Source of the DNA: an uncultured Christensenellaceae bacterium
GTDB taxonomy: Bacteria > Bacillota > Clostridia > Christensenellales > Aristaeellaceae
NCBI GenBank assembly: GCA_905234985.1
Contig: CAJOJQ010000032.1
Coordinates: 9,915-73,914 of the forward strand
Length of the DNA stretch: 64,000 bases
Reading direction: 5' to 3'
Positions 1-52,488 of this stretch are shown piece by piece. The notes below the pieces were generated by a model. The model made no database searches and was not told the DNA's origin. It saw only the letters and a list, made by a program, of their open reading frames with translations. Position 1 is the first letter of the stretch, and each line of letters opens with the position of its first letter. The position numbers and the translations under genes are program-made.

Positions 1-2547
1 TACCGCTTCTTCTTCATGAAAGCGCTGGGGCAGTACACCCTGCAATTCACCGACGGCAACGGCTTTAGCAAGACTGTGCTGGTTCGCGTAGAGACGCCCG
101 CTACAGCCATTCATCCTGAACAGGACACGGTCGTCGTCCAGGTAGGGCAGACCGTGCCCGTCCGGTACACAATGGAGGGCGGAACGTATTACGATCCCTT
201 TCCAAACTACACTTCAAGCGCCCTTTTCTTTGATCCGGCGGGCGAAACGCCCACCGTCACCGGCCTGCGGACGGGCTTCTATCAGGTCACGGCCAGAGAT
301 CGGCTCGCTTCCTTCGGCGTTTTTGTGGTGGACGCCTGCGAAGGGGTGAAGCTGCATATGCCGTATGACAAAGGCACCGTAGGCTATTCCTTTCCCATCA
401 CGACCACGGACCGGCAGGGAAAAACGGTCTATGCCCGCGTTGAACTGACCGAGGGGGAAGACTGCGCCGAGCTCTGCCGCGATGGCGGCAGTATCAGCCT
501 GAAGGGAAAAGCGGCGGGCTGGGTCACCGTGAAAGCCTACGGCACGGACGGCAGCACGGACGAAGCGCGCCTGCGGATTTACGAATCGCCCACCGATGTG
601 CATGTCACCCTTTCTTCCCAAACGATTCCCGCGGGGGAACGCCTTACGGTCAGCGCCGAGTACGAGCCCGCGGGCGCCTGGTATCCTCTGAAAATAAGCA
701 GTCATAACCCCGACGCAGAAGGACTGGAGGGCCCTGTGGCCGTCGTTGACGGCAACGTGATCATCGGGATCACGCCCGGCGTCTGCACCTTGGAGGTCTA
801 CGCCGCCGGCTCCCGTGAGTATTATCCCATCAAGGTAACCGACAGCGATCAGGCCCTGGTTTTTGACCGTCCGCAGCCCTATCTGAATTATGGGAAACCT
901 TATCAGCTTTCCGTTCATACCCGGGCGGGCGAGCTCGTTCCCGCCGAATACAGCGTGGAGGGCGCTTCCGTCAGCGTGACCGGGGACGGCCTGCTGTCCG
1001 CCTCCACTTCCCATGCGATCGGCTATGTAACGGTAACGCTGCAAAGCGGCCTTACCTACAGATTTCGCGTGGAGGCGGCGGAATGTCCCGCGTGGCTGGC
1101 CCCGGAAGCAGAGATCATCTCCATGCCCATCGATATCATCAGCTGTGATATGTGCTGTATCAAGTCCGACATGTCGGACATCGTGTCCATTACGGATCTG
1201 GTGCTTTGCAGCAGCGATGAATCGGTCGTGAAGGTGGATAACTGGCGCATCTATCCCCAATCCGTCGGCACGGCCACGCTGACGGTGTGGAGCCAATACA
1301 ACGATGTTTCCTGCACGGTGCCGGTCGTCGTCACAGAACCGTACGGGCGGCTGTTTGTGGACGGCGTGCCGGACGACGCCTCCATCAGCATCGCCTATAA
1401 CACCACGGTGCCCCTGCCCACCGTGACGGATTATTGGGGCAATCCGGTGAAGGTCACCTGGGAAATCACCCACCAGAGCAGCTACCCCAGCGGCAAGCGC
1501 GTGGTGCAGATCGTAAATGGCAAAAGCCTGAAATGCACCTATTACGACGGCTCCGCGGAGCTGTATGCCACGGCGGCCAGCGGGCAGACGCTTCATTTGA
1601 CCGTGTTCGCCTACCAGCGCGACACCACCTGCTCCTTCCGGGAAAGCGAGTACACGGTGACCACAGGCTCCTTTGTCCAGGTGGATTTCCAATACGGCAA
1701 TGATCTGAGCAACCCCAAGACGCTGGAGCCGCAGGACGTGACCTTCACCGTGACGGGGGATACGGACTGCGTGATCGTGGATTCCCAGTTTTCCCATCAT
1801 ACCTTTACCGGCCTGCGGGAAGGCACCGTAACGCTGACGGCCAAGCTGTACAACGGCAAAACGGCCAAGGCGGTGATCCATGTGGTCCTGCCCGAAAGCT
1901 GCAAGAACGGCCACGATCCCGAATGGTACGTGCGGGAGGCGCCCACCGCCATCCTGAACGGCGTGCGGGCGCTTCGATGCAGCCGCTGCCGCGTCCCGCT
2001 GGGGCAGGAGGAAGCCATTCCCTGCACGGGTGCGCTGGGCTTTGCGCTGCCGGACGTCTATCTGAAGGAAGGCGGGGTCGCTGTGCTGACCGCCACCCTG
2101 AACGGCAACCCCAAAGAGTCCTTTACCTACCGTTCCTCCAATCCTGACGCCGCGCGGGTGGTGGGCAGCGTGGTGATGGGCGTCGGTCTTGGCACGGCGG
2201 ACATTACCGTCACCAAAGGCGACTGCGAGCCCGCTGTGTGCCGGGTACACGTCATTCCGGTCACCACGCTGACGCTGCCCGCCGGGCTGCTTCATATTGA
2301 GGACGGCGCTTTCCAGGGCGTATCCGTGACCCGCATCGTCCTGCCCGAGCATGTGACAGCCATCGGCGCTTACGCCTTCGCGGACTGCCCCCGCCTGATG
2401 GAACTGGCCATCCCGGTCAGCGTGACGCAGATCGGGGAAAACGCCTTTGCCCATGACCCGTTCCTCACGCTCACCGTTACCCCCGGAAGCTTCGCGGAGC
2501 AGTACTGCATCGCCCGTAAGCTGGCCTATCGGTATGCGGGCGACTGA
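1..2547 (+). CDS. Cell-surface protein with Ig-like beta-rich repeats and C-terminal BspA-type leucine-rich repeats; 5' partial
   Basis: Track ORF 16..2547; the same frame has no stop back to base 1. C-terminus carries repeated LPxxLxxIxxxAFxxC-type LRR units. Confidence 0.7.
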   Translation, partial: YRFFFMKALGQYTLQFTDGNGFSKTVLVRVETPATAIHPEQDTVVVQVGQTVPVRYTMEGGTYYDPFPNYTSSALFFDPAGETPTVTGLRTGFYQVTARDRLASFGVFVVDACEGVKLHMPYDKGTVGYSFPITTTDRQGKTVYARVELTEGEDCAELCRDGGSISLKGKAAGWVTVKAYGTDGSTDEARLRIYESPTDVHVTLSSQTIPAGERLTVSAEYEPAGAWYPLKISSHNPDAEGLEGPVAVVDGNVIIGITPGVCTLEVYAAGSREYYPIKVTDSDQALVFDRPQPYLNYGKPYQLSVHTRAGELVPAEYSVEGASVSVTGDGLLSASTSHAIGYVTVTLQSGLTYRFRVEAAECPAWLAPEAEIISMPIDIISCDMCCIKSDMSDIVSITDLVLCSSDESVVKVDNWRIYPQSVGTATLTVWSQYNDVSCTVPVVVTEPYGRLFVDGVPDDASISIAYNTTVPLPTVTDYWGNPVKVTWEITHQSSYPSGKRVVQIVNGKSLKCTYYDGSAELYATAASGQTLHLTVFAYQRDTTCSFRESEYTVTTGSFVQVDFQYGNDLSNPKTLEPQDVTFTVTGDTDCVIVDSQFSHHTFTGLREGTVTLTAKLYNGKTAKAVIHVVLPESCKNGHDPEWYVREAPTAILNGVRALRCSRCRVPLGQEEAIPCTGALGFALPDVYLKEGGVAVLTATLNGNPKESFTYRSSNPDAARVVGSVVMGVGLGTADITVTKGDCEPAVCRVHVIPVTTLTLPAGLLHIEDGAFQGVSVTRIVLPEHVTAIGAYAFADCPRLMELAIPVSVTQIGENAFAHDPFLTLTVTPGSFAEQYCIARKLAYRYAGD

Positions 2548-2621: not shown

Positions 2622-3377
2622 TTACGCCTGCAATACCAGCTCCACCGGGCAATGGTCAGAGCCGAAAATTTCCGGGTGGATGCACGCGGAAACCAGCCGG
2701 GGGGTGAGGGCCTGGGACACGATGAAGTAATCGATGCGCCAGCCGGCGTTGTTTTCCCGGGCGTGGAAGCGGTAGCTCCACCAGCTGTAAGCGCCGGTCG
2801 CGTCGGGGTGGAAATGGCGAAAAGTGTCCACGAAGCCGCTGTCCAGCAGGGCGGTCATTTTGTCCCGTTCCTCCTGGGTAAAGCCCGCGTTGCGGATATT
2901 TGCTTTGGGGTTCTTGATGTCGATTTCCCGGTGGGCCACGTTCAGGTCGCCGCAGAACACCACGGGCTTTTCCTGTTCCAGGCCTTTCAGATAAGCCAAG
3001 AAAGCGTCCTCCCACTGCATGCGGTAGGGCAGGCGGGCCAGGCCGTCCTGGGAATTGGGGGTGTACACGGTGATGAAAAAGAAGTCCGGGAACTCCAGGG
3101 TGATCACCCGGCCCTCGTGGTCAAATTCATCCACGCCGATGCCATACTTGACGGACAGGGGTTCCTGCCTGGTGAACACCGCCGTGCCGGAATAGCCCTT
3201 CTTTTCGGCGTAATTCCAGTATTGATGATAGCCCGGCAGGTCCAGCGCGATCTGCCCGGCCTGCAGCTTGGTTTCCTGGAGGCAGAAAATGTCCGCGTCC
3301 AGGGCGCTGAACGTATCCTGAAAGCCCTTGCCCATCACAGCCCGCAGGCCGTTCACGTTCCATGAAATCAGCTTCAT
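2622..3377 (-). CDS. xth: Exodeoxyribonuclease III (AP endonuclease)
   Basis: 251 aa. MKLISWNVNGLRA...CLQETK...GDLNVAHxEIDxxN...SDHCPV are hallmark ExoIII/EEP motifs. Confidence 0.92.
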   Translation of the reverse strand: MKLISWNVNGLRAVMGKGFQDTFSALDADIFCLQETKLQAGQIALDLPGYHQYWNYAEKKGYSGTAVFTRQEPLSVKYGIGVDEFDHEGRVITLEFPDFFFITVYTPNSQDGLARLPYRMQWEDAFLAYLKGLEQEKPVVFCGDLNVAHREIDIKNPKANIRNAGFTQEERDKMTALLDSGFVDTFRHFHPDATGAYSWWSYRFHARENNAGWRIDYFIVSQALTPRLVSACIHPEIFGSDHCPVELVLQA

Positions 3378-4110: not shown

Positions 4111-4436
4111 GGGGAGCGCCCCTTGACTGAAATCCGCACCGGCGGCGTGTACGCCGGGAGGACGGAAAATTTCAGGAAGGAGCGAAGACGACTGGATGAA
4201 ATTTTCCTGCCTTGCGGTTTTTCCGCCCGGGAGCCCTTAGCGTCGAGCGAAGCGAGACTGCGGGCGAGAGGAAAAACCGTAGGGGACGAACCGCCGATGA
4301 CCGCCTGCGGCGGGAATCTCATCGGCGGTGAGATCAGCCGAAAGGGAGCAATCTCCCCATGAAGGGGAGTTGCGACCTTTATTCCGTAAGGGGGAAGGAT
4401 TCCCCCTTACGCGCCATTCAGCGCAAGCTGAATGGC
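4111..4436 (+). ncRNA. Unclassified structured RNA of about 330 nt (copy A of a 4-member family in this window)
   Basis: No credible ORF. Nested hairpins. Alignable along its whole length to the reverse complement of 35545..35871 with compensatory stem changes (GGAAAAUUUC/GAAAUUUUCC vs GAAAAAUUUC/GAAAUUUUUC; CUCCCC/GGGGAG vs GUCCGC/GCGGAC). Confidence 0.5.
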
Positions 4437-4438
4437 AA

Positions 4439-7426
4439 TTACTTTGCCATAGCCTGGGTGATTTCCCAGCCCCAGTTGATTTCGTTCTGGTGGCTGACGG
4501 CGTAGGGGCCGGTGGCTTCCGCCTCGGACATTTTCCGGGGGAAGTGGAGGCAGATATGGCCTGCCAGGTCGTTATTGGGGGTATGGTCCACCTCATGGCC
4601 GTGGCTGTGGATGGAGCCGATATACACCTGCCCGTCGGGGAAGATGACCCACACATACTTGGGCGTCCAGTTGTTCACGCCCACGATCTGGTTCAGGATG
4701 GCGGTATCCGCCGCGGTGGGGGGTTCGGAATCGGCATGCTTGCCGAAGGAGAACATATGCAGGTTAAAGTGCAGGCCGGAGTCCGGATCGTAAATCACCA
4801 CGTCGGGCATGCTGCGGGCGATGGGGCGGATCACGCTCTCCCAGTTGGCGTACTTCACCCGGGAAGCGGCGGGGGCGGTAAAGGCCGTGCTGCCGCTGTT
4901 ATTCGTATTGGTATTCGTACCCGTATTGGTGCTGGGCAGACCCGCCACGCCGGAGGCGGGCACGGCGCTGCTGGAGCTGATGCGATTCAGGGTCATGGTA
5001 CCCGCGATGCCGTCGGAGGTCAGGCCGTTCTGCTTCTGGAAGGCCGCCACGGCGTTCACGGTCTTGGGTCCGTAAATGCCGTCCGCCGCGGTCAGGTAGC
5101 CCAGCTGCACCAGGCGCTGCTGCAAAGCCTTGACCGCCGCGCCGCTGTCGCCCCTTTGCAGGAGCTTGGCGTTGATCTTGACCGCCGTGGCGGCAGAGGT
5201 GGCGGAGGGCTTGGGCGTGGCCGTGGGCTTGGGGGTGGCGGCGGCAATCGCCGTGCCGCTGACGTACAGGCGGGTCAGGGTCTGAGAGCCTGCCACGCCG
5301 TCGGGGTTGAGGCCGTTGGCCCGCTGGAAGTTCTTCACCGCCTGGGCGGTGCCGCTGCCGTACTGGCCGTCCACGGTGCCGGTAAAGTAGCCCAGGGCTT
5401 TCAGCCGGGTTTGCAGGGCGGAGACCAGCTCGCCGCTGCTGCCGGTTTTCAGGGTCTGGTTCACGGGATAAGGCGTGCTGGCCACGATGGGCGTGGGCGA
5501 TACGGAGGCCACGGGCAGGGGCGTGAAGGCGGCCACGGCGGAGGCGGCGTACAGGGCCTGCTGGGTCGCCAGACCGGCCACGCCGTCCACGGAGAGGCCG
5601 TTCTTGCGCTGGAATTCCTTGACGGCTTCGATTTCGTCGCTGTCATATACGCCGTCGGCGCGGCAGTTGTAGTAGCCCAGCTCCATGAGCCGGTATTGCA
5701 GCTTGGTCACTTCCGTGCCCTTGGTGCCGTTCTTCATCACCACCACGTTCTTGGCCGTCAGGGGGGTGGAGGTGGCGGCGGGAACGACGGCGGCGGCCTT
5801 CGGGGAGGGCGTGGGGGTGACGGCCAGCAGGCTCAGCAGGCGCATGGTTTTTTTGCCCGCCACGCCGTCCACGGTCAGCTTATGGTCGGTCTGGAATTTC
5901 TTCACCGCGTTCTGGGTGGCGGCGTCGTACACGCCGGAGGGGGTGGCGGCGGTATAATAGCCCAGGGCTTTCAGGGTGTTTTGCAGCTCGGTCACCTGCC
6001 AGCCCTTATCGCCCACGCTGAATTCCTCCACGGCGTAATTGGGCAGGATGGCCACGCTGACCTTCTTGCCCCGGGCGTTCAGGGGCTTGCCCTCAAAAAT
6101 CAATTTCTGCACCTCGGGGGAAGCGACGCTGTCCTGCCGGATGCCGTTCTTCTTCTGGAACGCCTTCACAGCGGCGGCGGTGTTGGCCCCGTAGCTGCCG
6201 TCCGCCGCCCCGGCGTAAAACTCCAGCTCCCTTAAGGCTTCCTGGAGTACGGACACGTTTTTGCCCGTGCTGCCGGTTTGCAGATAGGCGTAATGCTGCT
6301 GGGCGTCGGCGTCGGTGGACAGCGCCTTGCCGGGGGCGTACTGGGCGGGCACGTGGGCATAATCGGCCACGATGTAGCCCGTATAGGATTTATATTTGAC
6401 GTTCAGGAAATCCCCGGTGATCGCCAGCACCGAAATTTCCGCGCCCTTGGGCACGGTGAGCAGGCGCTGGGAGGAGGTGGAGGCGGATTTCCGCAGGTTC
6501 ACGGAGGCGGTGGTGTAGGTGGTAAAGGGGAAGGTGGCCTTGCCTTCCGTGGGGGGATTGGTGGGAATGGTGGTGGGGGTGGCGGTGGGCTTGGGCGTGG
6601 CGGTGGCCTTGGCGCTGATGGCCGTGGCCGCGTACAGCGCCCTCTGGGTGGCCGCGTCCGCCGTGCCGGTCTGGGTCAGGCCGTTCTTTTTCTGGAACGC
6701 CTTGATGGCGCTCACCGTGGCGCTGCCCGCCGCGCCGTCCACCGTGCCGGTGTAATAGCCCAGCTCTTTCAGCCGGTTTTGCAGGCGCGTCACCGCGTCG
6801 CCCTTGCTGCCGGAGGAGATGGACGCGCCCTCCACGTAGGACACCGTTTTCACAGCGGCGGCCTTGCCCTTGCTGTTCTTGGGCTTTCCTTCAAACAGCA
6901 GGGTCTGGGTGGCGCTGTCCGCCGTGCCGGTCTGGGAAAGGCCGTTCATGCTCTGGAAGGCGGTCACAGCGCCGCGGGTGCCGGAGCCGAAGCTGCCGTC
7001 CACCGCGCCGGTATAAAAGCCTAATTCCTTCAGCGCTTCCTGCACGGCCTTCACCGCGTCCCCCTTGCTGCCGGAATAGAGCAGCTTATAGGCGGAGGAC
7101 GCTCCGGCGGCGGCGGCGGGGGTGGGGGTAATGGCGGGCACGTCGGCGTTTCCGCTGGACGTTTGCAGATACTGCTTCAAGGCGTAGCCCTGTACGCCCT
7201 CATAAACGGCGATATAATAGCCGCCGCTTTCTCCGGTGATCACCGCCATATCCCCGGCGGGGATGGTGGTAAGCACTTTCGCGGAGCTGCTGGGCGACTG
7301 GCGCAGGTTCAGCGCTTCGGTAACGTAGGCCGTGAAGGGATAAGTATCCCCCATCGCGGGCACGGCCCCCAGCAGCAAAGCGGCTGCGATCAGAAAAGCG
7401 CAAACGCGGACGGTAACGGTACGCAT
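4439..7426 (-). CDS. Secreted cell-wall protein: signal peptide, 2 SH3-like domains, 7 peptidoglycan-binding (PG_binding_1-type) repeats, and a C-terminal His-rich domain of unknown type
   Basis: Track ORF 4439..7507. Start moved to the ATG at 7426, preceded by GGAGG and followed by a hydrophobic signal sequence. Seven units match G(S/D)xGxxVxxLQxxLxxLGYYxG...DGxxG. Confidence 0.8.
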   Translation of the reverse strand: MRTVTVRVCAFLIAAALLLGAVPAMGDTYPFTAYVTEALNLRQSPSSSAKVLTTIPAGDMAVITGESGGYYIAVYEGVQGYALKQYLQTSSGNADVPAITPTPAAAAGASSAYKLLYSGSKGDAVKAVQEALKELGFYTGAVDGSFGSGTRGAVTAFQSMNGLSQTGTADSATQTLLFEGKPKNSKGKAAAVKTVSYVEGASISSGSKGDAVTRLQNRLKELGYYTGTVDGAAGSATVSAIKAFQKKNGLTQTGTADAATQRALYAATAISAKATATPKPTATPTTIPTNPPTEGKATFPFTTYTTASVNLRKSASTSSQRLLTVPKGAEISVLAITGDFLNVKYKSYTGYIVADYAHVPAQYAPGKALSTDADAQQHYAYLQTGSTGKNVSVLQEALRELEFYAGAADGSYGANTAAAVKAFQKKNGIRQDSVASPEVQKLIFEGKPLNARGKKVSVAILPNYAVEEFSVGDKGWQVTELQNTLKALGYYTAATPSGVYDAATQNAVKKFQTDHKLTVDGVAGKKTMRLLSLLAVTPTPSPKAAAVVPAATSTPLTAKNVVVMKNGTKGTEVTKLQYRLMELGYYNCRADGVYDSDEIEAVKEFQRKNGLSVDGVAGLATQQALYAASAVAAFTPLPVASVSPTPIVASTPYPVNQTLKTGSSGELVSALQTRLKALGYFTGTVDGQYGSGTAQAVKNFQRANGLNPDGVAGSQTLTRLYVSGTAIAAATPKPTATPKPSATSAATAVKINAKLLQRGDSGAAVKALQQRLVQLGYLTAADGIYGPKTVNAVAAFQKQNGLTSDGIAGTMTLNRISSSSAVPASGVAGLPSTNTGTNTNTNNSGSTAFTAPAASRVKYANWESVIRPIARSMPDVVIYDPDSGLHFNLHMFSFGKHADSEPPTAADTAILNQIVGVNNWTPKYVWVIFPDGQVYIGSIHSHGHEVDHTPNNDLAGHICLHFPRKMSEAEATGPYAVSHQNEINWGWEITQAMAK

Positions 7427-19356: not shown

Positions 19357-20574
19357 ATGTATATCAGGCGGCACGCGGAAGCGACCATACAGGCTTTGGC
19401 GAAGCAATTCGGCGCGGTACTGGTGACGGGACCCCGGCAAGTAGGCAAAACCACCATGCTGCAAAATATCTTAGACGATATAAATTACGTCACCATGGAC
19501 GACGCCATCCTTCGGGCGGCAGCGGTGGAAAACACCAACACGTTCATCAAGGACAACCCGCCGCCGCTGTTCATCGACGAGGTTCAGAAAGCGCCGGAAG
19601 TATTTCCGGCCATCAAAATGTCCCTGGACGCCAGCCGGAAAAAGGGACAATTCTTCCTCACCGGTTCCCAACAGTTCAGGATGATGAAGCACGTCAGCGA
19701 ATCGTTAGCCGGGCGGGTCGGCATCCTGAATCTGTTGGGGCTGTCCATGCGGGAAATCAGCGGCGTGGAGGATCAAACAACCTTCCTTCCCACCGAGGAT
19801 TATTTTTCCAGCCGCAAAAAGCAATTGTCCCCCTTGGATTACGACGCCGTTTGGAAGCTGATTTGGCGGGGGTGTATGCCGGAACTGACCGCGAATCCAG
19901 AATTTGACTGGCAGATGTTTTACGGGGCGTATGTGACCACCTATGTGGAGCGGGACGTGAAGGAACTGGCCCAGGTGGGGGATGAAGTGAAATTCACCCG
20001 CTTCATGACGGTGCTGGCGGCCCGCAACGGGCAATTGCTGAACCTGCACTCCGCCGCTAATGACGTTGGCATCAGCCAGCCCACCGCCGACCGGTGGCTA
20101 TCCATCCTGAAAGCTTCTCATATCGTGTATCTGCTCCCGCCCTATTCCAACAACCGCACCACCCGGGCGGTGAAATCGCCCAAAATGTATTTCCTGGATA
20201 CCGGGCTGGCGGCCTATCTCAGCCGCTGGAACACGGTGGAAACCCTGAAAAACGGGGCCATGGCCGGGGCGTTCTTTGAGGCGTTCGTGCTTTCGGAAAT
20301 CGTGAAGAGCTATTACAACCGGGGCGTTCTGGAGCCGCCTCTGTATTTCTATCGGGACAAGGACAAGAAGGAAATCGACGTCCTGATCGAAGAAAACGGC
20401 GTCCTGTACCCCCTGGAAGTAAAAAAACACGCCGACCCCAGCGTTCACGACCTGGACAATTTCAGCGTGCTGGATCGCTTCGCCGACCGAGGCCCCGGCG
20501 GCGTGATTTGTCTGTATGACCGGCTCATCACCCTGCGGGGGCAGGATCGAGCGATTCCCGTTTGTTATCTTTAA
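19357..20574 (+). CDS. AAA+ ATPase with C-terminal DUF4143-like domain (paralog 1)
   Basis: Walker A GPRQVGKTT, Walker B LFIDEVQ. The C-terminal half resembles the DUF4143 architecture. Confidence 0.8.
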   Translation: MYIRRHAEATIQALAKQFGAVLVTGPRQVGKTTMLQNILDDINYVTMDDAILRAAAVENTNTFIKDNPPPLFIDEVQKAPEVFPAIKMSLDASRKKGQFFLTGSQQFRMMKHVSESLAGRVGILNLLGLSMREISGVEDQTTFLPTEDYFSSRKKQLSPLDYDAVWKLIWRGCMPELTANPEFDWQMFYGAYVTTYVERDVKELAQVGDEVKFTRFMTVLAARNGQLLNLHSAANDVGISQPTADRWLSILKASHIVYLLPPYSNNRTTRAVKSPKMYFLDTGLAAYLSRWNTVETLKNGAMAGAFFEAFVLSEIVKSYYNRGVLEPPLYFYRDKDKKEIDVLIEENGVLYPLEVKKHADPSVHDLDNFSVLDRFADRGPGGVICLYDRLITLRGQDRAIPVCYL

Positions 20575-21033: not shown

Positions 21034-21069
21034 GGCTTTCTTGGGCCTGGGGGGGAAACCTTCTTTGGG
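21034..21069. repeat. Truncated (left-half) copy of the GGGGGAAACC REP-like hairpin
   Basis: GGCTTTCTTGGGCCTGGGGGGGAAACCTTCTTTGGG matches the flank plus left arm of 45290..45335. The right arm is missing. Confidence 0.6.
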
Positions 21070-21110
21070 TTAATTAATTTCAAGTGTTCCAACAAATCAT
21101 AAAATAGCAA

Positions 21111-21139
21111 TTGACACCATTCGACAATTCCTATACAAT
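21111..21139 (+). promoter_or_regulatory. Consensus promoter of small-ORF transcript B
   Basis: TTGACA-17 nt-TACAAT. Confidence 0.7.
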
Positions 21140-21145
21140 AAAATT

Positions 21146-21323
21146 GCCCCTTCGGGGGCCGAGAGTGAACACAAACGCGCAGGTGGACGAACCGCCGATG
21201 ACCGCCTGTGGCGGGAATTTCATCGGCGGTGAGATCAACCGAAACAAGCAATGTCCGCATGAAGCGGACTTGCGCCGATTGAGGTTGCGGAACGCTCCAT
21301 CCTCCCGAAAGGAGGTGGTGCGA
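21146..21323 (+). ncRNA. Structured 5' leader (copy B of the RNA family) ending in an SD-sequestering hairpin
   Basis: GCCCCUUCGGGGGC hairpin. Conserved core GACGAACCGCCGAUGACCGCCUG...GGUGAGAUCA...GCAAU-stem-CAUGAAG-stem-UUGCG. CCAUCCUCC-CGAAA-GGAGGUGG pairs the SD. Confidence 0.5.
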
Positions 21324-21416
21324 ATGCGTCTTACTTTTCATGTATGGAAGTACACGATAACGATTGTTATTCGTGAAACGCATCGCAAAAAGAACAACCG
21401 CCACTCTGCCAAGTGA
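21324..21416 (+). CDS. 30-aa cationic small protein (candidate type I toxin-like peptide), copy B
   Basis: GGAGGTGGTGCGA-ATG. MRLTFHVWKYTITIVIRETHRKKNNRHSAK. Paralog at 21759..21851 differs mostly by conservative substitutions. Confidence 0.45.
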   Translation: MRLTFHVWKYTITIVIRETHRKKNNRHSAK

Positions 21417-21489
21417 CGGTTGAACTTGCGATGTAGCATCGCGACCTAAACCTAACTTCAAGAGCAACCGCGTGCGTGGTTCACTCTTC
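21386..21489 (-). ncRNA. Predicted cis-antisense RNA to the 3' end of ORF B (about 105 nt)
   Basis: Bounded by the promoter at 21496..21523 and the hairpin AACCGUCACU-UGGCAG-AGUGGCGGUU plus GUUCUUUUU. Confidence 0.45.
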
Positions 21490-21500
21490 GCTTTTATTAT
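21459..21500 (+). terminator. Intrinsic terminator of transcript B
   Basis: AAGAGCAACC-GCGTGCG-TGGTTCACTCTT followed by CGCTTTTATTAT. Confidence 0.6.
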
Positions 21501-21523
21501 ACCCGCTTTTGCGAACTTGTCAA
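21496..21523 (-). promoter_or_regulatory. Consensus promoter of antisense RNA B
   Basis: Minus strand reads TTGACA-16 nt-TATAAT. Confidence 0.7.
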
Positions 21524-21648
21524 GTGCCGCGCGTTGCCGGAACGTTCTTTTCCTCCCCCTGAAACGCCCGAAAATCCCGCCCCCCTGCCCAAATGCGTTA
21601 ATTCTCAAAGCAAGCAGCGGAAAAGCCAGCAAAAACCACGTGCAACCA

Positions 21649-21676
21649 TTGACATTTCTTCAAATTTGGTTATAAT
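21649..21676 (+). promoter_or_regulatory. Consensus promoter of antisense RNA C
   Basis: TTGACA-16 nt-TATAAT. Confidence 0.7.
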
Positions 21677-21713
21677 TAATAACGAAGAGCGAACCACGCA
21701 CGCGGTTGCTCGT
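21672..21713 (-). terminator. Intrinsic terminator of transcript C
   Basis: Minus strand GAGCAACC-GCGTGCGT-GGTTCGCTC then TTCGTTATTAATT. Confidence 0.55.
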
Positions 21714-21787
21714 CAGTGCAAACTTATCGTCGTGATCTTGCGATCACAGGGACAGCCGTCACTTGGCAGAGTGGCGGTTGTTCTTTT
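21683..21787 (+). ncRNA. Predicted cis-antisense RNA to the 3' end of ORF C (about 105 nt)
   Basis: Starts after the promoter at 21649..21676. Ends at AGCCGUCACU-UGGCAG-AGUGGCGGUU plus GUUCUUUUC. Confidence 0.45.
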
Positions 21788-21851
21788 CGCGATGCGTTTT
21801 CTGGATGACAATCGTCACCGTGTACTTTCCAATGTGGAAGGTAAGACGCAT
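21759..21851 (-). CDS. 30-aa cationic small protein, copy C
   Basis: GGGGGTGATGCGT-ATG. MRLTFHIGKYTVTIVIQKTHREKNNRHSAK. Confidence 0.45.
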   Translation of the reverse strand: MRLTFHIGKYTVTIVIQKTHREKNNRHSAK

Positions 21852-22030
21852 ACGCATCACCCCCTTTCGGGAGGATGGAGCGTTCCGCAACCTCAATCGG
21901 CGCAACTCCCCTTCATGGGGAGATTGCTTGTTTCGGTTGATCTCACCGCCGATGAAAATCCCGCCACAGGCGGTCATCGGCGGTTCGTCCGCCTGCGCGT
22001 TTGTGTTCACTCTTCGGCCCCCGAAGGGGC
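21852..22030 (-). ncRNA. Structured 5' leader (copy C of the RNA family)
   Basis: Mirror image of 21146..21323 with the same core and an SD-pairing hairpin. Confidence 0.5.
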
Positions 22031-22036
22031 GCTTCC

Positions 22037-22065
22037 ATTGTATAGGAAATGTCGATTGGTGTCAA
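22037..22065 (-). promoter_or_regulatory. Consensus promoter of small-ORF transcript C
   Basis: Minus strand TTGACA-17 nt-TACAAT. Confidence 0.7.
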
Positions 22066-22100
22066 TTGCTTTTTCGTCATCGTTTCGGGAATCATCTTGC

Positions 22101-22129
22101 AAAAAACGCCCGCCATGACAGCGGGCGCT
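22101..22129 (-). terminator. Intrinsic terminator downstream of the Rpn-like gene
   Basis: Minus strand CAGCGCCCGC-TGTCAT-GGCGGGCG-TTTTTT. Confidence 0.7.
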
Positions 22130-22246
22130 GAATGTTTTTGGGGAAGCGGTTCAGGCAATTCCCTATTCCTTGGACAGTTTCATCGTCAAACAGCACCATT
22201 GTAGTATGAGCCATGTTATCCTCCGGTTGTTATCGCTTCAAGCGGT

Positions 22247-23215
22247 TCACGCGATACCCAATTCCTTGCAAAGTTTTTCCCTGTATTCAGGATCGTTGGC
22301 GGCTTTTTCCAAATCTTTTGCCCGTCCCAGGGAAAGCAGCCTGGAAATCAGCGTGGACATTTTGCTTTCACCTTCCGCTCTGCCTTCCACTTTGCCCTCC
22401 GCTCTTCCTTCCGCTCTTCCTTCCGCTCTTCCTTCCGCTCTTCCTTCCGCTCTTCCTTCCGCTCTGCTTTCCCGCCGGATTTGCGCGTCGTGATTTCTCA
22501 TGACGGTTTCATCGTCAAACAACAGCATCATAAGGCTTGTTACCTCCTCTATTCCTTTGGTCAGCAAATAATTTTTCAGGGCGTTATGCTCCACGCAGTA
22601 GTGATATGTTGCCCGCATCGCCTCCGGTGCGTAGCCATATTTCTGAATGTTCTGATCCAGCGTGTGGGCAAACGTCATATACTGGTCGATGATGTCCCCT
22701 TCTTTTCCTTGCTGCACGATTTTAGCGGTGATCTCCACATCGGGCGTATCGCCCGGAAAGAACTCCCTGGCAAAGGACAGCTGTTCAGGCCGTTCTCCCT
22801 TTCCCGTATATATCACGAAAAATTCCGGCTTGGGCAGGGATACGCGCTTCTCGCTGTACACGTCCAGCTCGTGGGCGGTGATGTAGTTTTTGTAGGTGTA
22901 CGCCAGATAGATCAGGATGCGGATCAGGATGTTCACGGACCAGGTGGATTGCGCTTCCACCAGGATCACGAATTTATCCCGCGCCAGAATGCCCAGGTCG
23001 TTATAGGACTTGTTGGTCAGGATATTTCTGATCGTTACGGTGGAAATATCATCCTCCGTGTAATCCGAAAGCTCCGGGTGGAGGGCTTTCAGCAATTCCA
23101 GGCCGTAAGCGGGCGTGCCGAATACCTCCGTGAAAATGGACGCCTTTGCTTCGCGTTTGGCGGTCATACCATCGCCGTTGTTCATCAGCTCGATGAACCG
23201 TTCCTCGTGCTGCAT
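22247..23215 (-). CDS. Rpn-family (YhgA-like, PD-(D/E)XK) recombination-promoting nuclease / putative transposase
   Basis: Start moved to the ATG at 23215 behind GGGGGGTGGA. The family assignment rests on the overall look of the N-terminal region plus the C-terminal (AEGR)n low-complexity tail that I recall as typical of this family. No catalytic residues were identified. Confidence 0.65.
   Translation of the reverse strand: MQHEERFIELMNNGDGMTAKREAKASIFTEVFGTPAYGLELLKALHPELSDYTEDDISTVTIRNILTNKSYNDLGILARDKFVILVEAQSTWSVNILIRILIYLAYTYKNYITAHELDVYSEKRVSLPKPEFFVIYTGKGERPEQLSFAREFFPGDTPDVEITAKIVQQGKEGDIIDQYMTFAHTLDQNIQKYGYAPEAMRATYHYCVEHNALKNYLLTKGIEEVTSLMMLLFDDETVMRNHDAQIRRESRAEGRAEGRAEGRAEGRAEGRAEGKVEGRAEGESKMSTLISRLLSLGRAKDLEKAANDPEYREKLCKELGIA
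22371..22472. repeat. 12-bp tandem repeat (CCTTCCGCTCTT)n encoding (AEGR)n
   Basis: About 8 consecutive near-identical units inside the Rpn-like CDS. Confidence 0.85.
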
Positions 23216-23354
23216 TTCGTCCACCCCCCTTTTTCCACCATCCTGTGGCTTTATTATACCTCTTTGAGCAGAATTATTCAAGGCCTTTGATTTTTCCGGA
23301 TAAAAAAGCCGCTCGGACAGGTTCTTTATGTGAACCCTCCGCGCGGCGTTTTGT

Positions 23355-23909
23355 TTACTGCTCCATTTGGCGGCCAACGATGCCTGCCGCCGTTTCCGCT
23401 ACCTTGATTTCCGTATCGCCCATGCGCGCGCCCTGCTCCCGGGAAAGCAGCAGCACCGCGCCGATGGCCTCCCCGTCCGCGATGATGGGGGACACCACCT
23501 GGGCCGTGTAGCCGGACACGTCCTCCTCGTTGGTCACGGGCACGATTTTGCCGCCGCCCGTGCGGTTGCTGCTCACCGTCTGCCGCGCCTGAATGGCGCT
23601 TTCCAAATCGGGGCTGATGGGCTTATCCCACAGCTCTTTTTTGCTCACGCCGCTGGCCGCCACCACTTGATCCCGGTCCACGATGCACGCGATGTGCCCC
23701 AGGGAGCGGAACAACGATTCCGTGTAGTCCTTGGCAAAGGAACTCATCTCCCCAATGGGGGAATACTTCTTCAAAATCACTTCGCCGTCCCGATCTGTGT
23801 AAATTTCCAGCGGGTCACCCTCGCGGATGCGCAGGGTGCGGCGGATTTCCTTGGGGATCACCACGCGGCCCAGCTCGTCAATCCTTCTTACGATACCTGT
23901 CGCTCGCAA
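23355..23909 (-). CDS. spoVT: Stage V sporulation protein T (AbrB-family regulator)
   Basis: MRATGIVRRIDELGRVVIPKEIRRTLRIREGDPLEIY... SpoVT/AbrB swapped-hairpin N-terminus plus a GAF-like C-terminus. Confidence 0.9.
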   Translation of the reverse strand: MRATGIVRRIDELGRVVIPKEIRRTLRIREGDPLEIYTDRDGEVILKKYSPIGEMSSFAKDYTESLFRSLGHIACIVDRDQVVAASGVSKKELWDKPISPDLESAIQARQTVSSNRTGGGKIVPVTNEEDVSGYTAQVVSPIIADGEAIGAVLLLSREQGARMGDTEIKVAETAAGIVGRQMEQ

Positions 23910-24509: not shown

Positions 24510-24779
24510 ATGGCGGTATGTTATAAAAAGCTGTGAAAGCTACTCATCGACAAAGACATGAAAAAGAGCGATCTTGAGCGCGAAGCCAAGATTTCTCATT
24601 ATGCTTTGGGGAAGCTGTCTCAGGGGAAGGATGTTTCTACAGAAGTTTTGGGGAAAATCTGTGAAACGCTTCATTGCACCATTGACGATATTATGGAATT
24701 CGTACCAGAGGAAGGGAAAAGACATGCGATCAATAGAATTGTCCAGTATCAAGATCAACCACCAAAAGAGAACATATAG
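24510..24779 (+). pseudogene. XRE-family HTH regulator with in-frame TGA at codon 9 (Trp position)
   Basis: GGAG-N8-ATG GCG GTA TGT TAT AAA AAG CTG TGA AAG CTA CTC ATC GAC AAA GAC ATG... The track ORF 24558..24779 is the part downstream of the stop. Confidence 0.55.
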
Positions 24780-25063
24780 AACAGGTTGAAATCAAAGGGA
24801 CAACATTCCCATTAGGGGAAATATGGTGCTTTTGCATGTAAATATGGAGGAATTATATATGGAAATAAACGATATTCAGTATAACGAGAATGGTGAAATC
24901 ATTGATGTCAAAAGCTGATTTACAGATACGGGACGATGGATTTGATTCGATGATCTGATGGCGGAAAGGGATTTGACCAAGGATTCGTTGTTGTAACTTA
25001 TACAACAACTGCGGCGGACGGGATCATGACCAAGACGGGAATTTGAAAAGGGAGAAAAACACG

Positions 25064-25669
25064 ATGGGTTCCTGCGATTGGGGCTTCGCCTTTGAAGCCA
25101 TGAAAACATACCACGACACTGAATGGGGCGTGCCGGTACACGACGACCGGGTGATGTTTGAACATCTTATGATGGAGGCTATGCAATGCGGCCTCAGTTG
25201 GAGCCTGATGCTCAAGAAGCGGGAGATTTTTCGCGCCTGCTTTGACGGCTTCGATTATGACAAAATCGCCGCTTACACCGCAGACGACATAGAACGCATC
25301 CTGAATTTTGACGGCATGATCCGCTCCCGCCGGAAGATCGAAGCGGTGATCAACAACGCCCGGTGCTTCCAGAAAATCCAGCGGGAACACGGCAGCTTTT
25401 GCGATTGGCTGTGGGCCCATTCCGGCAGGAAGACCATCCTGTATATAGGCCACGAAAAGGGAAAAATCCCCGTCAGCAACGGCCTGTCCGACCAGATCGC
25501 CAAGGAGCTGAAGGCATACGGCTTTAAATATATGGGCACGGTGACGGTGTATGCCCACCTGCAGGCCTGCGGCATCGTCAACGATCATGGCGACGCCTGC
25601 CCTTGCTATCATGCCATCAACGCGCAATACCCTACGGCTCGGAAAAGGCGGCATCTGGAAAAGCCATAA
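25064..25669 (+). CDS. tag: DNA-3-methyladenine glycosylase I
   Basis: ...YHDxEWGVPVHDDRxxFExLxxExxQxGLSW... hallmark Tag motifs. Confidence 0.9.
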   Translation: MGSCDWGFAFEAMKTYHDTEWGVPVHDDRVMFEHLMMEAMQCGLSWSLMLKKREIFRACFDGFDYDKIAAYTADDIERILNFDGMIRSRRKIEAVINNARCFQKIQREHGSFCDWLWAHSGRKTILYIGHEKGKIPVSNGLSDQIAKELKAYGFKYMGTVTVYAHLQACGIVNDHGDACPCYHAINAQYPTARKRRHLEKP

Positions 25670-25819: not shown

Positions 25820-25848
25820 TTGACATTCCCTCCTCGTTGCCTTATCAT
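25820..25848 (+). promoter_or_regulatory. Promoter of 25903..27183
   Basis: TTGACA-17 nt-TATCAT, sandwiched between the two operator-like repeats. Confidence 0.6.
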
Positions 25849-25849
25849 C

Positions 25850-25886
25850 TTATTGAGAGGTTACGACGTAACGGACGTTCATTCTC
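25850..25886. promoter_or_regulatory. Operator-like repeat 2
   Basis: TTATTGAGAGGTTACGACGTAACGGACGTTCATTCTC, immediately after the -10. Confidence 0.5.
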
Positions 25887-25902
25887 TGTCAGGAGGTGCC
25901 TT

Positions 25903-27183
25903 ATGATCGCAAGAGATTTATACCTGCGCCAGCTGATCGACTACATGGGAGACGGACAGATCAAGGTTATCACCGGTATTCGCAGGTGCGGAAAATCCGT
26001 GCTTTTGTTCCATCTTTTTTATGATTATCTGATCGCGTCCGGTGTGCCTGCCGATCATATCCTGCAAATCGCCCTGGACAAACGAAAGGACGCAAAGTAC
26101 AGGAACCCGATCGCCCTTTCCGACAAGGTCAGCGAGTGGGTCAGGGAAGATGAAGGGAAATACTATCTTTTTATCGACGAAATCCAGATGGCCTATTCCG
26201 TGCCCGATCCGGACAATCCCGGCCACGAGATCACGGTTTATGACATGCTGAACGAGCTGAAGGATTATCCCAATTTAGATGTGTACGTGACCGGCAGCAA
26301 TTCCAAAATGCTGTCCAGGGATATCGCCACCCAGTTTCGGGGGCGGGCTTCGCACGTGCATGTGTACCCGCTTTCCTTTTCCGAGTATCACCAAGCCGTG
26401 GGCGGCGATAAGCGCGATAACTTTGACCGCTTTCTGATTTACGGCGGCATGCCCTACCTTCTGAACCTCAAGACGGACCGGCAGCGGCAGGATTATCTGA
26501 CCTCCCTCTTTCAGGAGGTGTACATCAGCGATATCGTGGAACGGAATCACCTGGAACGCCGGGATGTGCTGGAAGACATGCTGGATTTCTTAGGTTCTTC
26601 CATCGGTTCTCTCACCAATCCCACGAACATCGCAAATACCCTGAACAGCGTCAAGCACGCCGGCGTCAGCGGCAATACAGTCAGCGCCTATTTGGGATTT
26701 ATCATGGATGCGTTTCTGGTCTGCGAAGCGCGCCGGTATGATATCAAGGGGAAGTCCTATTTTGATTTTCCCAACAAGTATTATTTCACCGACGTTGGCC
26801 TGCGCAACGCCCGGCTCAGCTTTCGCCAGATCGATCCGGGACATATGATGGAAAACGTGATTTACATGGAGCTGCTGCGCCGTGGGTACGCCGTGGATGT
26901 GGGCGTGGTGACAGACCGGCGGAACGGCCAGAACAAGCAGAAGGAAGTGGATTTTGTCGTCAACAGCGGCGATAAGCGCATGTATATCCAATCCGCATGG
27001 CAGATGCCGGAAGACAAAAAAGAAATCGCGGAGACTGATTCGCTTCGTCTCACAAACGATTTCTTCAAACGCATCATCATTCAATCCGACATTCCCGGCG
27101 TGATCACCGATGAGGAAGGCATCATTCACTGCAACATCATTGATTTCCTGATGAGCGATGATGAAAACGCAGGGTTCATTTGA
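25903..27183 (+). CDS. AAA+ ATPase with C-terminal DUF4143-like domain (paralog 2)
   Basis: AGGAGG-N7-ATG at 25903. Walker A GIRRCGKS, Walker B LFIDEIQ. Confidence 0.8.
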   Translation: MIARDLYLRQLIDYMGDGQIKVITGIRRCGKSVLLFHLFYDYLIASGVPADHILQIALDKRKDAKYRNPIALSDKVSEWVREDEGKYYLFIDEIQMAYSVPDPDNPGHEITVYDMLNELKDYPNLDVYVTGSNSKMLSRDIATQFRGRASHVHVYPLSFSEYHQAVGGDKRDNFDRFLIYGGMPYLLNLKTDRQRQDYLTSLFQEVYISDIVERNHLERRDVLEDMLDFLGSSIGSLTNPTNIANTLNSVKHAGVSGNTVSAYLGFIMDAFLVCEARRYDIKGKSYFDFPNKYYFTDVGLRNARLSFRQIDPGHMMENVIYMELLRRGYAVDVGVVTDRRNGQNKQKEVDFVVNSGDKRMYIQSAWQMPEDKKEIAETDSLRLTNDFFKRIIIQSDIPGVITDEEGIIHCNIIDFLMSDDENAGFI

Positions 27184-35496: not shown

Positions 35497-35565
35497 CTAC
35501 CACAAAAGCCTGGCCGCATCAAGCGCCTTGCAAGGGCGGACACGGTTCACGCATGAATGAGAAGT
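35497..35565. repeat. Left copy of an imperfect direct repeat of about 70 bp flanking the EPS island
   Basis: CTACCACAAAAGC...CAAGCGCC...GCGGACACGGTTCACGCATGAATGAGAA. Compare 44638..44706. Confidence 0.55.
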
Positions 35566-35871
35566 TACCATTCAGCCTGCGGGTTCATAGTAACGCGCGG
35601 GCGGGTATTGCATACCCCCCGCGAATCCGCAGGCTCAATAGTCGCAAGTCCGCTTCATGCGGACATTGCTCCTTTTCGCCTGATCTCACCACAGGCGGTC
35701 ATCGGCGGTTCGTCCCCCCGCCCGGTTTTTCCTAAAATCCCTATGGGATTTCCGGGCGGAAAAACCGCAAGGTAGAAAAATTTCCTTTGGTCGTCTTCGT
35801 TCCCTTCAGAAATTTTTCGTCCTCCCGGCGTACACGCCGCCGGCGCGGATTACAGTCGGGGGAGTACCCCC
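35545..35871 (-). ncRNA. Unclassified structured RNA (copy D of the family; long form)
   Basis: Its reverse complement aligns with 4111..4436 end to end. It lacks about 20 nt of the core hairpin present in copies A-C. Confidence 0.5.
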
Positions 35872-52214: not shown

Positions 52215-52322
52215 GATGCACGATCCTTTCCAAATGAGAATAAAAAGAAGAGCCCGCCGAAGCAAAGCTCCCTCAAACCAATGCGACAAAACGATTTCGA
52301 TCCAAAACGGAAAGGATCGTCG

Positions 52323-52488
52323 CCTCTGTCCTTTTGCCTGAGAGATTAGCCCTTTTCGGGCTTTGCACCTTCGGCCCCCGGTCTTTCTCCGGGCTTCTCC
52401 AGAGTGTCATCCGCATACAGTCCCGCCGCCCTTGGCAGCGCCTGAGAGTGTTGCTCCTTCGGCTATCCTTTGGGATATTTCCTGCATG
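52323..52488 (-). ncRNA. Tandem glycine riboswitch
   Basis: Minus strand, aptamer I: CAUGCAG-GAAA-UAUCC..GGAUA-GCCGAAGGAGCAAC-ACUCUCAGGC..GGGACUGUAUG. Aptamer II: CUCUGGAGA..GCCGAAGGUGCAA..CUCUCAGGCAAAAGGACAGAG. Upstream of an AGCS transporter gene. Confidence 0.8.

Follow-up and report, generated by a model that had tools for sequence, protein, structure and literature searches.

A mirrored pair of small genes with predicted convergent antisense RNAs and a type I toxin-antitoxin layout in a Christensenellaceae genome

Organization of the mirrored locus

We analyzed a 64,000-nucleotide stretch of DNA (hereafter the window) from an uncultured Christensenellaceae bacterium (GenBank assembly GCA_905234985.1, contig CAJOJQ010000032.1, positions 9,915 to 73,914 of the forward strand). 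The subject of this report is a locus in which two copies of a small module face each other, each comprising a promoter, a structured leader, a 30-codon open reading frame (ORF) and, on the opposite strand, a convergent promoter for a short antisense RNA. The gene pair lies between a gene for a DUF4143 ATPase and an unannotated gene for an (EGRA)n-repeat protein, near spoVT. Its arms, 21102-21523 (+) and 22074-21649 (-), are inverted copies with 85.7% identity over 407 nt (BLAST, E = 1.7e-131), and an inverted-repeat search recovered them as two blocks, 21147-21432 / 21743-22028 (286 nt, 88%) and 21102-21162 / 22014-22074 (89%). Both searches bear out a first-pass annotation of this DNA, made by a model from the sequence, which had described arms of ~0.4 kb around a spacer of ~125 bp. 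The two copies are an old inverted duplication; among the loci that we fetched, such a mirror pair was seen at the window locus only. The features, in window coordinates, are as follows.

Left copy
21111-21139 (+), sense promoter, TTGACA-17-TACAAT, 11/12; predicted transcription start site ~21146
21146-21500 (+), predicted mRNA, ~355 nt; minimum free energy (MFE) -151.8 kcal/mol, z = -7.6 versus shuffles
21146-21159 (+), 5' cap hairpin of the mRNA
21160-21182 (+), leader strand A
21185-21291 (+), inserted core, a ~105-nt multi-copy structured repeat; nhmmer E = 4.8e-34
21287-21298 (+), leader strand B
21297-21318 (+), hairpin CCAUCCUCC-CGAAA-GGAGGUGG sequestering the Shine-Dalgarno (SD) sequence, GGAGG at 21311-21315
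21324-21416 (+), 30-codon ORF, MRLTFHVWKYTITIVIRETHRKKNNRHSAK and stop
21428-21442 (+), variable hairpin of the 3' untranslated region (UTR), GCGAUG-UAG-CAUCGC; helix 10, with 4/5 pairs compensatory
21460-21500 (+), 3' stem and U tract, both the mRNA terminator and the 3' strand of a long-distance helix
21386-21489 (-), predicted antisense RNA, ~104 nt; terminator stem 21422-21395, then U tract
21523-21496 (-), antisense promoter, TTGACA-16-TATAAT, 12/12; conserved in all relatives

Between the copies
21524-21648 (no strand), spacer, 125 bp, in which no inter-arm similarity and no feature was found

Right copy
22065-22037 (-), sense promoter, TTGACA-17-TACAAT, 11/12
22030-21672 (-), predicted mRNA, with its 5' hairpin at 22030-22017
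21990-21884 (-), inserted core; nhmmer E = 1.4e-33
21857-21878 (-), SD-sequestering hairpin
21851-21759 (-), 30-codon ORF, MRLTFHIGKYTVTIVIQKTHREKNNRHSAK and stop
21732-21747, variable 3' UTR hairpin, GUGAUC-UUGC-GAUCAC
21683-21789 (+), predicted antisense RNA; terminator stem 21753-21780 and U tract
21649-21676 (+), antisense promoter, TTGACA-16-TATAAT, 12/12

A promoter scan found exactly four sigma-70-type sites in 1.6 kb, compared with 0.8 +/- 0.9 in shuffled sequences, and all four lie exactly where the first-pass annotation had placed them. That annotation had also predicted, from the inner promoter of each arm, an RNA of ~105 nt that ends at its own terminator and is complementary to the end of the ORF and the 3' UTR, and the promoter scan, a terminator scan and folding all agree with this prediction. 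The left antisense terminator (21422..21395, minus strand, plus U tract) was detected by the terminator scan, and the predicted RNA of ~104-105 nt folds into three hairpins. On the opposite strand, the left antisense RNA covers the final ~31 nt of the ORF and the entire 3' UTR, an overlap of ~104 nt in which complementarity is perfect because the antisense RNA is encoded in cis. The stem and U tract that had been read as the mRNA terminator are there, although the stem is imperfect, is accompanied by CGCUUUUAUUAU, and was missed by a simple terminator scan. Likewise, the two ORFs translate as had been stated, with a start one base off the position implied.

Relatives of the module and their genomic context

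Relatives were reached by four independent routes: two DNA 20-mers, a protein search and a profile search. An exact 20-mer spanning the end of the ORF and the antisense terminator matched 14 metagenome contigs, 12 of which carry true relatives; L120 and L121 were rejected as chance matches to the 20-mer. The second 20-mer, taken from the mRNA 3' stem, gave matches in IMG/VR contigs. The protein search, with a 43-aa in-frame extension of the peptide as query, returned the right-arm peptide itself and two relatives; the exact right-arm peptide is present, without a name, in NCBI and ENA records. A profile search with the peptide, which had been proposed as a check, was run with hmmsearch against 1.84 billion representative proteins and found 115 clusters (50% identity) at E <= 1e-3, most of them called with a spurious N-terminal extension that is the translated SD hairpin ('RKEVxxM'). 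Finally, a peptide-pattern scan of IMG/VR yielded 92 confirmed loci or contigs. Neither PLSDB plasmids nor INPHARED phages gave a BLAST match to the segment from the ORF to the terminator.

A divergent tyrosine integrase gene lies ~188 nt upstream of the module in 18 IMG/VR loci, and genes for CI-like helix-turn-helix (HTH) and ImmA/IrrE proteins, or tail genes, are found near viral-contig copies. Of the other relatives, L127 adjoins a phage integrase gene, L123 adjoins PrgI of a conjugative system, and L115 stands on a chromosome, with an ABC-transporter ATPase gene on one side and metK on the other. On viral contig L143, ~2.5 kb from a family member, there is also a RAGATH-31 RNA (5617-5670, plus strand; RF03101, 82.9 bits).

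The convergent antisense promoter and its intrinsic terminator are kept in 13/13 full-length relatives and in 81/81 viral-contig copies, the latter with TTGACA-16..18-TATAAT 65-75 nt past the stop codon in every case, and no full-length putative toxin gene without an antisense promoter was found in these two sets. Four loci found via RNA-side anchors (L109, L112, L118 and L128) retain the 3' part but no longer have a leader, SD or start codon, and in L112 a perfect antisense promoter is still present. The prophage association and this one-sided decay match what is expected of a toxin with an RNA antitoxin, and count as indirect evidence for one. Separately, in L138 a 3'-only remnant (antisense terminator and 3' stem, 3190-3260) stands in tandem directly downstream of a complete copy.

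Coding sequence, RNA structure and the inserted core

By its pattern of substitutions, the ORF is a gene under protein-level selection. The coding test used the 13 full-length loci and was confined to the first 19 codons, a part of the ORF that the antisense RNA does not reach. Variable sites at codon positions 1, 2 and 3 number 13, 5 and 18, respectively, and pairwise comparison in the ORF frame gave 460 synonymous versus 429 nonsynonymous codon differences. The same comparison gave 117/764 and 65/821 in the other two frames, both of which contain stop codons. The coding signature, in line with the selection on coding sequence argued for at first pass, is seen in the ORF frame only. All changes in ORF length are in frame (25, 29, 30, 34, 36 and 37 aa), a GGAGG-type SD precedes the ORF in 81/81 viral-contig copies, and the SD-start spacing is conserved. 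The stops or frameshifts that the first-pass annotation had envisaged in homologous loci were not found; the ORF is intact in every full-length locus examined. In the 13 aligned loci there is no variation at Met1, Arg2, Phe5, His6, Ile14 or Thr19; across the larger family full invariance is limited to Met1 and Thr4, and Arg2, His6, Thr11 and Ile14 stand at 90% or more.

These data bear directly on whether the locus might be no more than a sense/antisense RNA pair or a structured repeat with a fortuitous ORF. GC-rich sequence of this kind gives many spurious ORFs, 200-aa ORFs running antisense to each arm among them, and the tail of the peptide is constrained by an RNA hairpin. Nevertheless, third-position variation and synonymous enrichment occur in the ORF frame only and the other frames carry stops; in addition, the indels are in frame, the SD spacing is conserved, and the invariant residues lie outside the antisense overlap. 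We consider a fortuitous ORF extremely unlikely.

The family consensus of the peptide is MRIT[FL]HIGx[FY]TVTII[VI]K, a variable basic linker and NRHSAK; the shortest forms have 25 aa, a typical member of that length being MRITLHIGRFTVTIIVKSRNRHSAK, and the two window peptides differ by six amino-acid changes. For the conserved N-terminal 16-17 residues, the prediction is an amphipathic beta-hairpin rather than a transmembrane (TM) helix. In an AlphaFold2 model built on a 4-sequence alignment, strands span residues 2-7 and 10-15, with pLDDT values of 87 and 79 for residues 1-10 and 11-20, and the tail is disordered (pLDDT 54). From the alternating residue pattern, a two-residue Gly-Lys turn would place Ile3, Phe5, Ile7, Tyr10, Val12 and Ile14 on one face and Arg2, Thr4, His6, Thr11 and Thr13 on the other. 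This prediction, together with the lack of a TM-length stretch, is in keeping with the earlier description of an atypical cationic peptide that is no obvious membrane toxin. Searches of the peptide against Pfam, NCBIfam, PHROGs, PADLOC and PDB sequences gave no match, and none of its strings was found in a literature library.

The peptide has a charged C-terminus, and this basic tail is partly a by-product of the antisense terminator RNA. Its Lys codons (AAAAAG) complement the U tract of the antisense terminator, and the stretch that encodes NNRHSAK and the stop is the antisense terminator stem. One subfamily, which includes L123, P0003, P0004 and P0017, translates these same nucleotides (CCGCCACUCUGC) in a different frame, to ...SAATLHK and a stop. 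In the metagenomic ORFs P0021, P0041, P0061, P0066, P0093, P0099 and P0112, the frame changes in the run of A residues ahead of the antisense terminator and the normal stop is read through, with tails ..TATLPSDG.. or ..QPPLWQV.., which could reflect homopolymer sequencing error, decay or slippage-prone variation.

The RNA is conserved in its own right. RNAalifold was run on alignment A3 (the 13 loci, with the inserted core removed from three), in which the -35 and -10 boxes of the sense promoter are also conserved. The consensus contains the 5' hairpin, a long 5'-3' helix, the SD hairpin, the antisense-terminator hairpin and the variable 3' UTR hairpin. Pairing in the SD hairpin (helix 5) is 94%, and 2 of its pairs are compensatory; the SD is mostly paired in ensemble folds of the relatives (mean P(unpaired) 0.01-0.26); the antisense-terminator helix (helix 9) is 97% paired. 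The first-pass annotation had recognized the SD hairpin, the GCCCC/GGGGC hairpin at the 5' end and the compensatory exchange of GCGAUG/CAUCGC for GUGAUC/GAUCAC, all of which are present, and had argued for selection on RNA structure, which the covarying helices of A3 support.

What it had missed is a pairing of ~24 bp between the two ends of the mRNA: the 3' stem (21460-21500) pairs with leader segments 21160-21182 and 21287-21298. This long-distance helix (helices 3 and 4) comprises 24 pairs that are 93-96% paired, 5 of them compensatory, and in A3 it joins the leader CGAGAGUGAAC...CGCGCAG-GCGG-UUGCUC to the 3' end GAGCAA-CCGC-GUGCGUG-GUUCACUCU. Standard pairs make up 92.4% of the A3 structure, compared with 37-46% when the partners are slid, and double-sided changes occur at 16 pairs compared with 6.8 +/- 1.8 in shuffles (0/500 shuffles reach 16), counts in which the structure derives from the same alignment. 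Distant subfamilies keep the 5'-3' helix with other sequences: in L129 and L130, GGCGCUGC...GGCGGUCGGC pairs with GCUGACCGC...GCAGCGCC, and in L132, GCAAGAGUAUC pairs with GAUACUCUUGC. The cognate 5'-3' duplexes of these subfamilies have energies of -44 to -48 kcal/mol, compared with -20 to -33 kcal/mol across subfamilies. For 40 distinct viral 5'-3' pairs the mean is -44.7 kcal/mol, compared with -22.4 kcal/mol with shuffled partners; the non-cognate control for these pairs discriminates poorly, the sequences being related and shifted, and we place the weight on the shuffled control and the subfamily matrix. As judged from these comparisons, the helices of the mRNA are conserved and covarying, with independent support from distant subfamilies.

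Inter-arm identity varies along the module: 89-94% in the promoter, leader, core and SD hairpin, 75% in the first 19 codons, 97% in the antisense terminator, 54% in the middle of the 3' UTR and 91% in the 3' stem. The central hairpin, which differs between the arms by compensatory changes, is the least conserved inter-arm segment, and this variable 3' UTR hairpin is a candidate specificity or loop-contact element. The cognate antisense/mRNA duplexes have energies of -219 and -235 kcal/mol and the crossed duplexes -151 and -154 kcal/mol; partial cross-talk is therefore possible and partial insulation plausible. The two pairs may be partly insulated from each other by the divergence of this hairpin, at the center of the sense/antisense overlap, and two diverged copies in one locus provide a natural test of antitoxin specificity.

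The leaders of both window copies also carry the core of ~105 nt. Further copies in the window are as follows.

~4284-4380 (+), core
35715-35626 (-), core

Module leaders with the core were seen only in the two arms of the window and in L068, a metagenome-assembled genome (MAG) from goat rumen, ~104 nt being inserted at the same point in each case. In L111, L113-L117, L122, L123, L125, L127, L129, L130, L132 and L138 the leader lacks it and runs from ...AAACGCGCAG directly into GCGGUUGCUCC... The insertion point is the junction of two sub-helices in the 5' strand of the long-distance helix, which still forms in the MFE structure. Elsewhere, the core occurs at >108 loci in ~15 rumen Clostridia and Oscillospiraceae MAGs, with many copies per genome, often at contig ends, and it is a frequent cause of breaks in assemblies; similarity between copies is limited to ~-20..+120, and the flanking modules are mosaic. 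It has three stems with conserved unpaired bases, shows compensatory change in 14/29 pairs, and follows the pattern GGACGAACC-stem-GGUGAGAUCA-NNC-GAAA-hairpin-UUGCG..UUGAG-GNN-UGCGGA. An exact core 21-mer was not found in viral contigs. Nearly all family members keep the module without the core, and the core is not needed for it; it is a separate mobile or repeated structured element that landed at a helix junction and is tolerated there. Candidate identities for it are an RNA element, a MITE-like element and a regulatory leader. The first-pass annotation had been right that the leader shares a core with 4111-4436 and 35545-35871, and had counted as part of the module what is an insertion outside it.

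Could the core instead be a riboswitch-like RNA that senses a ligand or protein, and the ORF an ordinary small gene or leader peptide? Its strong structure and conserved unpaired bases would suit such a role, as would its position in two contigs, L039 (~150-300) and L102 (~2740-2900), where a gene starts directly downstream of it. In L102 a hairpin over an SD-like AAGGAAGG comes next, and the core may act as a 5' leader in some contexts. Against this, the promoter, SD hairpin, ORF and antisense gene are unchanged in the nearly complete majority of members that lack the core, and the core is present many times per genome in varied, mosaic and often non-5'-UTR contexts. Moreover, it matches no Rfam family at the gathering threshold, with nothing meaningful at E <= 10 in the locus and the two other window copies. 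Scanning the leader with cmscan, as had been suggested at first pass, gave no Rfam riboswitch or leader match. We regard a sensing role as very unlikely at this locus. An integral riboswitch-like leader of the module was rejected, as most family members lack the core; a TnpB/IscB omega-RNA, a group II intron fragment and another insertion-sequence-linked RNA, suggested by the many copies at contig ends, found no support: there is no conserved adjacent ORF, similarity is confined to ~-20..+120, and there is no Rfam match. The only Rfam match in the window at the gathering threshold is a glycine riboswitch (RF00504) at 52316-52412 (-), with 55.8 bits.

The window copies of the core outside the locus are parts of ~330-nt composite elements at 4111-4436 (+) and 35545-35871 (-), which also occur in L001, L002, L012, L024, L029, L036, L087 and L105. 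These comprise a conserved upstream module of ~215 nt (GGGG..CCCCUUGACUG..CCGGCGGCGUGUACGCCGG..UUGCGGUUUUUCCGCCCGG..), the core, and two 3' hairpins ending ..GAAUGGUAAC; a related GUAACCAUUCA motif stands upstream of some copies, a hint of terminal repeats. A piece of another repeat family borders the locus itself.

21034-21075 (+), fragment with GGCTTTCTTGGGCC and the left half of a long CTGGGGGAAACC... hairpin; outside the module

This fragment lies directly upstream of the left promoter and includes a terminator-like match at 21044-21071 (terminator scan). The GGCTTTCTTGGGCC and CTGGGGGAAACC... motifs recur beside core copies in other genomes, and the fragment looks like a minimal or decayed member of a mosaic repeat system. 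The GGGGGAAACC half-hairpin noted earlier at this border is indeed present at 21049-21071; it had been taken as consistent with insertion of the locus, but it belongs to this other repeat family and gives no evidence on the origin of the locus.

As for the neighboring genes, paralogous AAA_14/DUF4143 ATPase genes at 19357-20574 (+) and 25837-27183 (+) bracket the region. Between them lie genes for SpoVT (23355-23909, minus strand), a Cro/CI-type HTH protein (24558-24779) and a methyladenine glycosylase (25043-25669). The ORF at 22247-23377 (-) contains, at 22371-22490, at least 8 copies of the 12-nt tandem repeat CCTTCCGCTCTT, which encode (EGRA)n near the C-terminus; the 376-aa protein has no Pfam or PADLOC match.

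Interpretation and comparison with known systems

We propose, with a probability of roughly two in three, that each arm is a member of a new family, found in Clostridia and their prophages, with Gram-positive type I toxin-antitoxin (TA) architecture and an atypical toxin. The layout is observed in every full-length copy, and each structural claim of the first-pass annotation, which had suggested a type I layout with an atypical cationic peptide, finds support in the sequences of the relatives; the function, and with it the designation as a toxin-antitoxin system, is inferred. In this type of organization, as in Fst, TxpA, YonT, SprA1, SprG and BsrE-G-H, the antisense RNA lies on the 3' side and overlaps the ORF (T1TAdb, PMC8594479).

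The module probably works as follows. A strong sigma-70-type promoter would give a short mRNA whose first nucleotides are held in a protective hairpin. The leader pairs over ~24 bp with the 3' end of the mRNA, in a helix that stacks on the hairpin burying the SD; given the long-distance helix and the SD hairpin, the full-length mRNA should therefore be poorly translated. When translated, the 25-37-codon ORF would yield a cationic peptide with an N-terminal amphipathic beta-hairpin, one face carrying Ile, Phe, Tyr and Val and the other Thr, His and Arg. The convergent promoter in the mRNA 3' end would produce the ~105-nt antisense RNA, whose 5' end (GAAGAGUGAACCACGCACGCGGUUGCUC) is almost identical in sequence to the leader strand of the mRNA. 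The antisense RNA would thus mimic the leader and compete with it for the 3' end of the mRNA. If the module behaves like bsrG/SR4, txpA/RatA and the C. difficile systems (PMC6563280, PMC8594479), the sense/antisense duplex would undergo RNase III-type decay, and the peptide would not be made. Should the antisense RNA fall, the peptide would be made and would presumably inhibit growth, so that loss of the prophage or island would be penalized.

Several points weigh against this proposal. A hydrophobic TM helix characterizes nearly all known type I toxins (PMC6563280). The module peptide departs from this rule: its longest hydrophobic run is ~14 residues, is broken by Gly-Lys/Arg, and is too short for a TM helix. 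The beta-hairpin model draws on four aligned sequences, and the C-terminal NRHSAK, which overlaps the stem of the antisense terminator, cannot be ascribed a role in the peptide. Among type I toxins, exceptions to the rule of a TM helix are known in SymE and RalR. Furthermore, no Rfam toxin or antitoxin family matches the module at the gathering threshold. The BsrG model (RF01412) reaches 18.4 bits compared with a threshold of 55 (E = 0.089), over the left-arm SD hairpin and ORF start only; we rejected membership of BsrG, since the match is sub-threshold, concerns a generic SD hairpin, and does not recur in a typical family member. Finally, when 45 nt are removed from the 3' end in silico, the SD stays paired, with P(unpaired) unchanged, and we do not claim activation by 3' trimming of the kind known for hok and aapA1.

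The peptide might also be an antisense-regulated non-toxin, such as a peptide for prophage lysogeny, immunity or superinfection exclusion, or a small regulator that attaches to a host protein through beta-strand addition, with the antisense RNA only tuning its level. There are precedents in temperate phages: oop tunes cII in lambda, and sar tunes ant in P22. The module is often located between the integrase gene and the lysogeny genes (CI/ImmA), its peptide is not membrane-like, and nothing in PADLOC or any TA library matches it, all of which would fit. However, every copy has three layers of repression (the SD hairpin, the 5'-3' lock and a perfect-consensus antisense promoter), as is typical of harmful products, copies on chromosomes and conjugative elements lie outside lysogeny modules, and 5'-truncated remnants keep the antisense side. 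A non-toxin of this kind is, in our judgment, unlikely.

A broader version of the toxin proposal is put forward tentatively, and may well prove too broad: a widespread type I toxin family of gut and rumen clostridial prophages, of which this locus would be the founding example, with a cationic amphipathic beta-hairpin effector of 25-37 aa in place of a TM helix, a 5'-3' lock plus 3' antisense RNA, and a leader invaded by a new structured module. If it holds, the toxic mechanism would be new to type I systems, for example an oligomeric beta-hairpin pore or, alternatively, action on an intracellular target via beta-strand addition or nucleic-acid binding. The core would then be an independently folding, multi-copy module able to sit in the helix junction of another RNA; as a highly structured, multi-copy element with no known family, it is also a separate lead. 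Type I systems are hard to find because the tiny ORF and the RNA both go unannotated, and to our knowledge few are known beyond model Firmicutes and Proteobacteria. The present family is abundant, lies at the ends of prophages of uncultured Clostridia from gut and rumen, and is missing from all the curated libraries searched. Were the peptide toxic, type I toxin structures would extend beyond membrane helices, and the module would offer a compact model for the cooperation of a 5'-3' mRNA lock with a 3' antisense RNA, as well as a marker, and possibly a stabilization module, for prophages and islands.

Among known systems, bsrG/SR4, bsrE/SR5, bsrH, txpA/RatA and yonT/SR6 of B. subtilis prophage regions resemble the module in that the mRNA and antisense RNA run toward each other and share a 3' overlap that takes in the last part of the ORF (PMC8594479). 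The bsrG/SR4-type families and the module also share an ORF of <60 codons with a charged C-terminus, an SD held in a hairpin, a strong antitoxin promoter, and location in a prophage or genomic island. They differ in that there is no sequence or covariance-model similarity between them, and in that the module peptide has no TM helix and a predicted beta-hairpin. We know of no description of an extensive 5'-3' long-distance mRNA helix in these families.

Firmicute type I systems are located in prophages (PMC6563280), and those of C. difficile (CD2517.1-RCd8, CD0956.2-RCd10 and the phiCD630 systems) are, like the module, clostridial and convergent with long complementarity. They are also prophage-borne and contribute to the maintenance of mobile elements (PMC6563280, PMC7699646). 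The C. difficile toxins are proteins of 34-59 aa with a conserved hydrophobic N-terminal TM domain and a Lys-rich tail (PMC6563280), whereas the module peptide has 25-37 aa, is Thr-rich and beta-prone, and shows no homology to them. In shape, the predicted peptide recalls protegrin, tachyplesin and arenicin, cationic two-stranded hairpins of similar length with one hydrophobic face. These are secreted, disulfide-stabilized host-defense peptides; the module peptide, with neither cysteines nor a signal sequence, would act inside the cell, and the likeness is by analogy only.

The combination of a conserved 5'-3' lock with SD sequestration, described as fold-back inhibition or a long-distance interaction, is shared with hok/Sok of plasmid R1 and aapA1/IsoA1 of H. 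pylori (Franch et al., 1997, cited in PMC8594479; PMC6733600). In those systems the antisense RNA lies inside the mRNA and targets its 5' or initiation region, whereas that of the module would target the 3' end; the toxins are hydrophobic, the hosts are Gram-negative, and there is no sequence similarity to the module. The hok and aapA1 mRNAs are activated by 3' processing, whereas the SD of the module is not opened by trimming the 3' end in silico. If our broader proposal is correct, the mRNA described here would unite a Gram-negative-style 5'-3' lock with a Gram-positive-style 3' antisense RNA.

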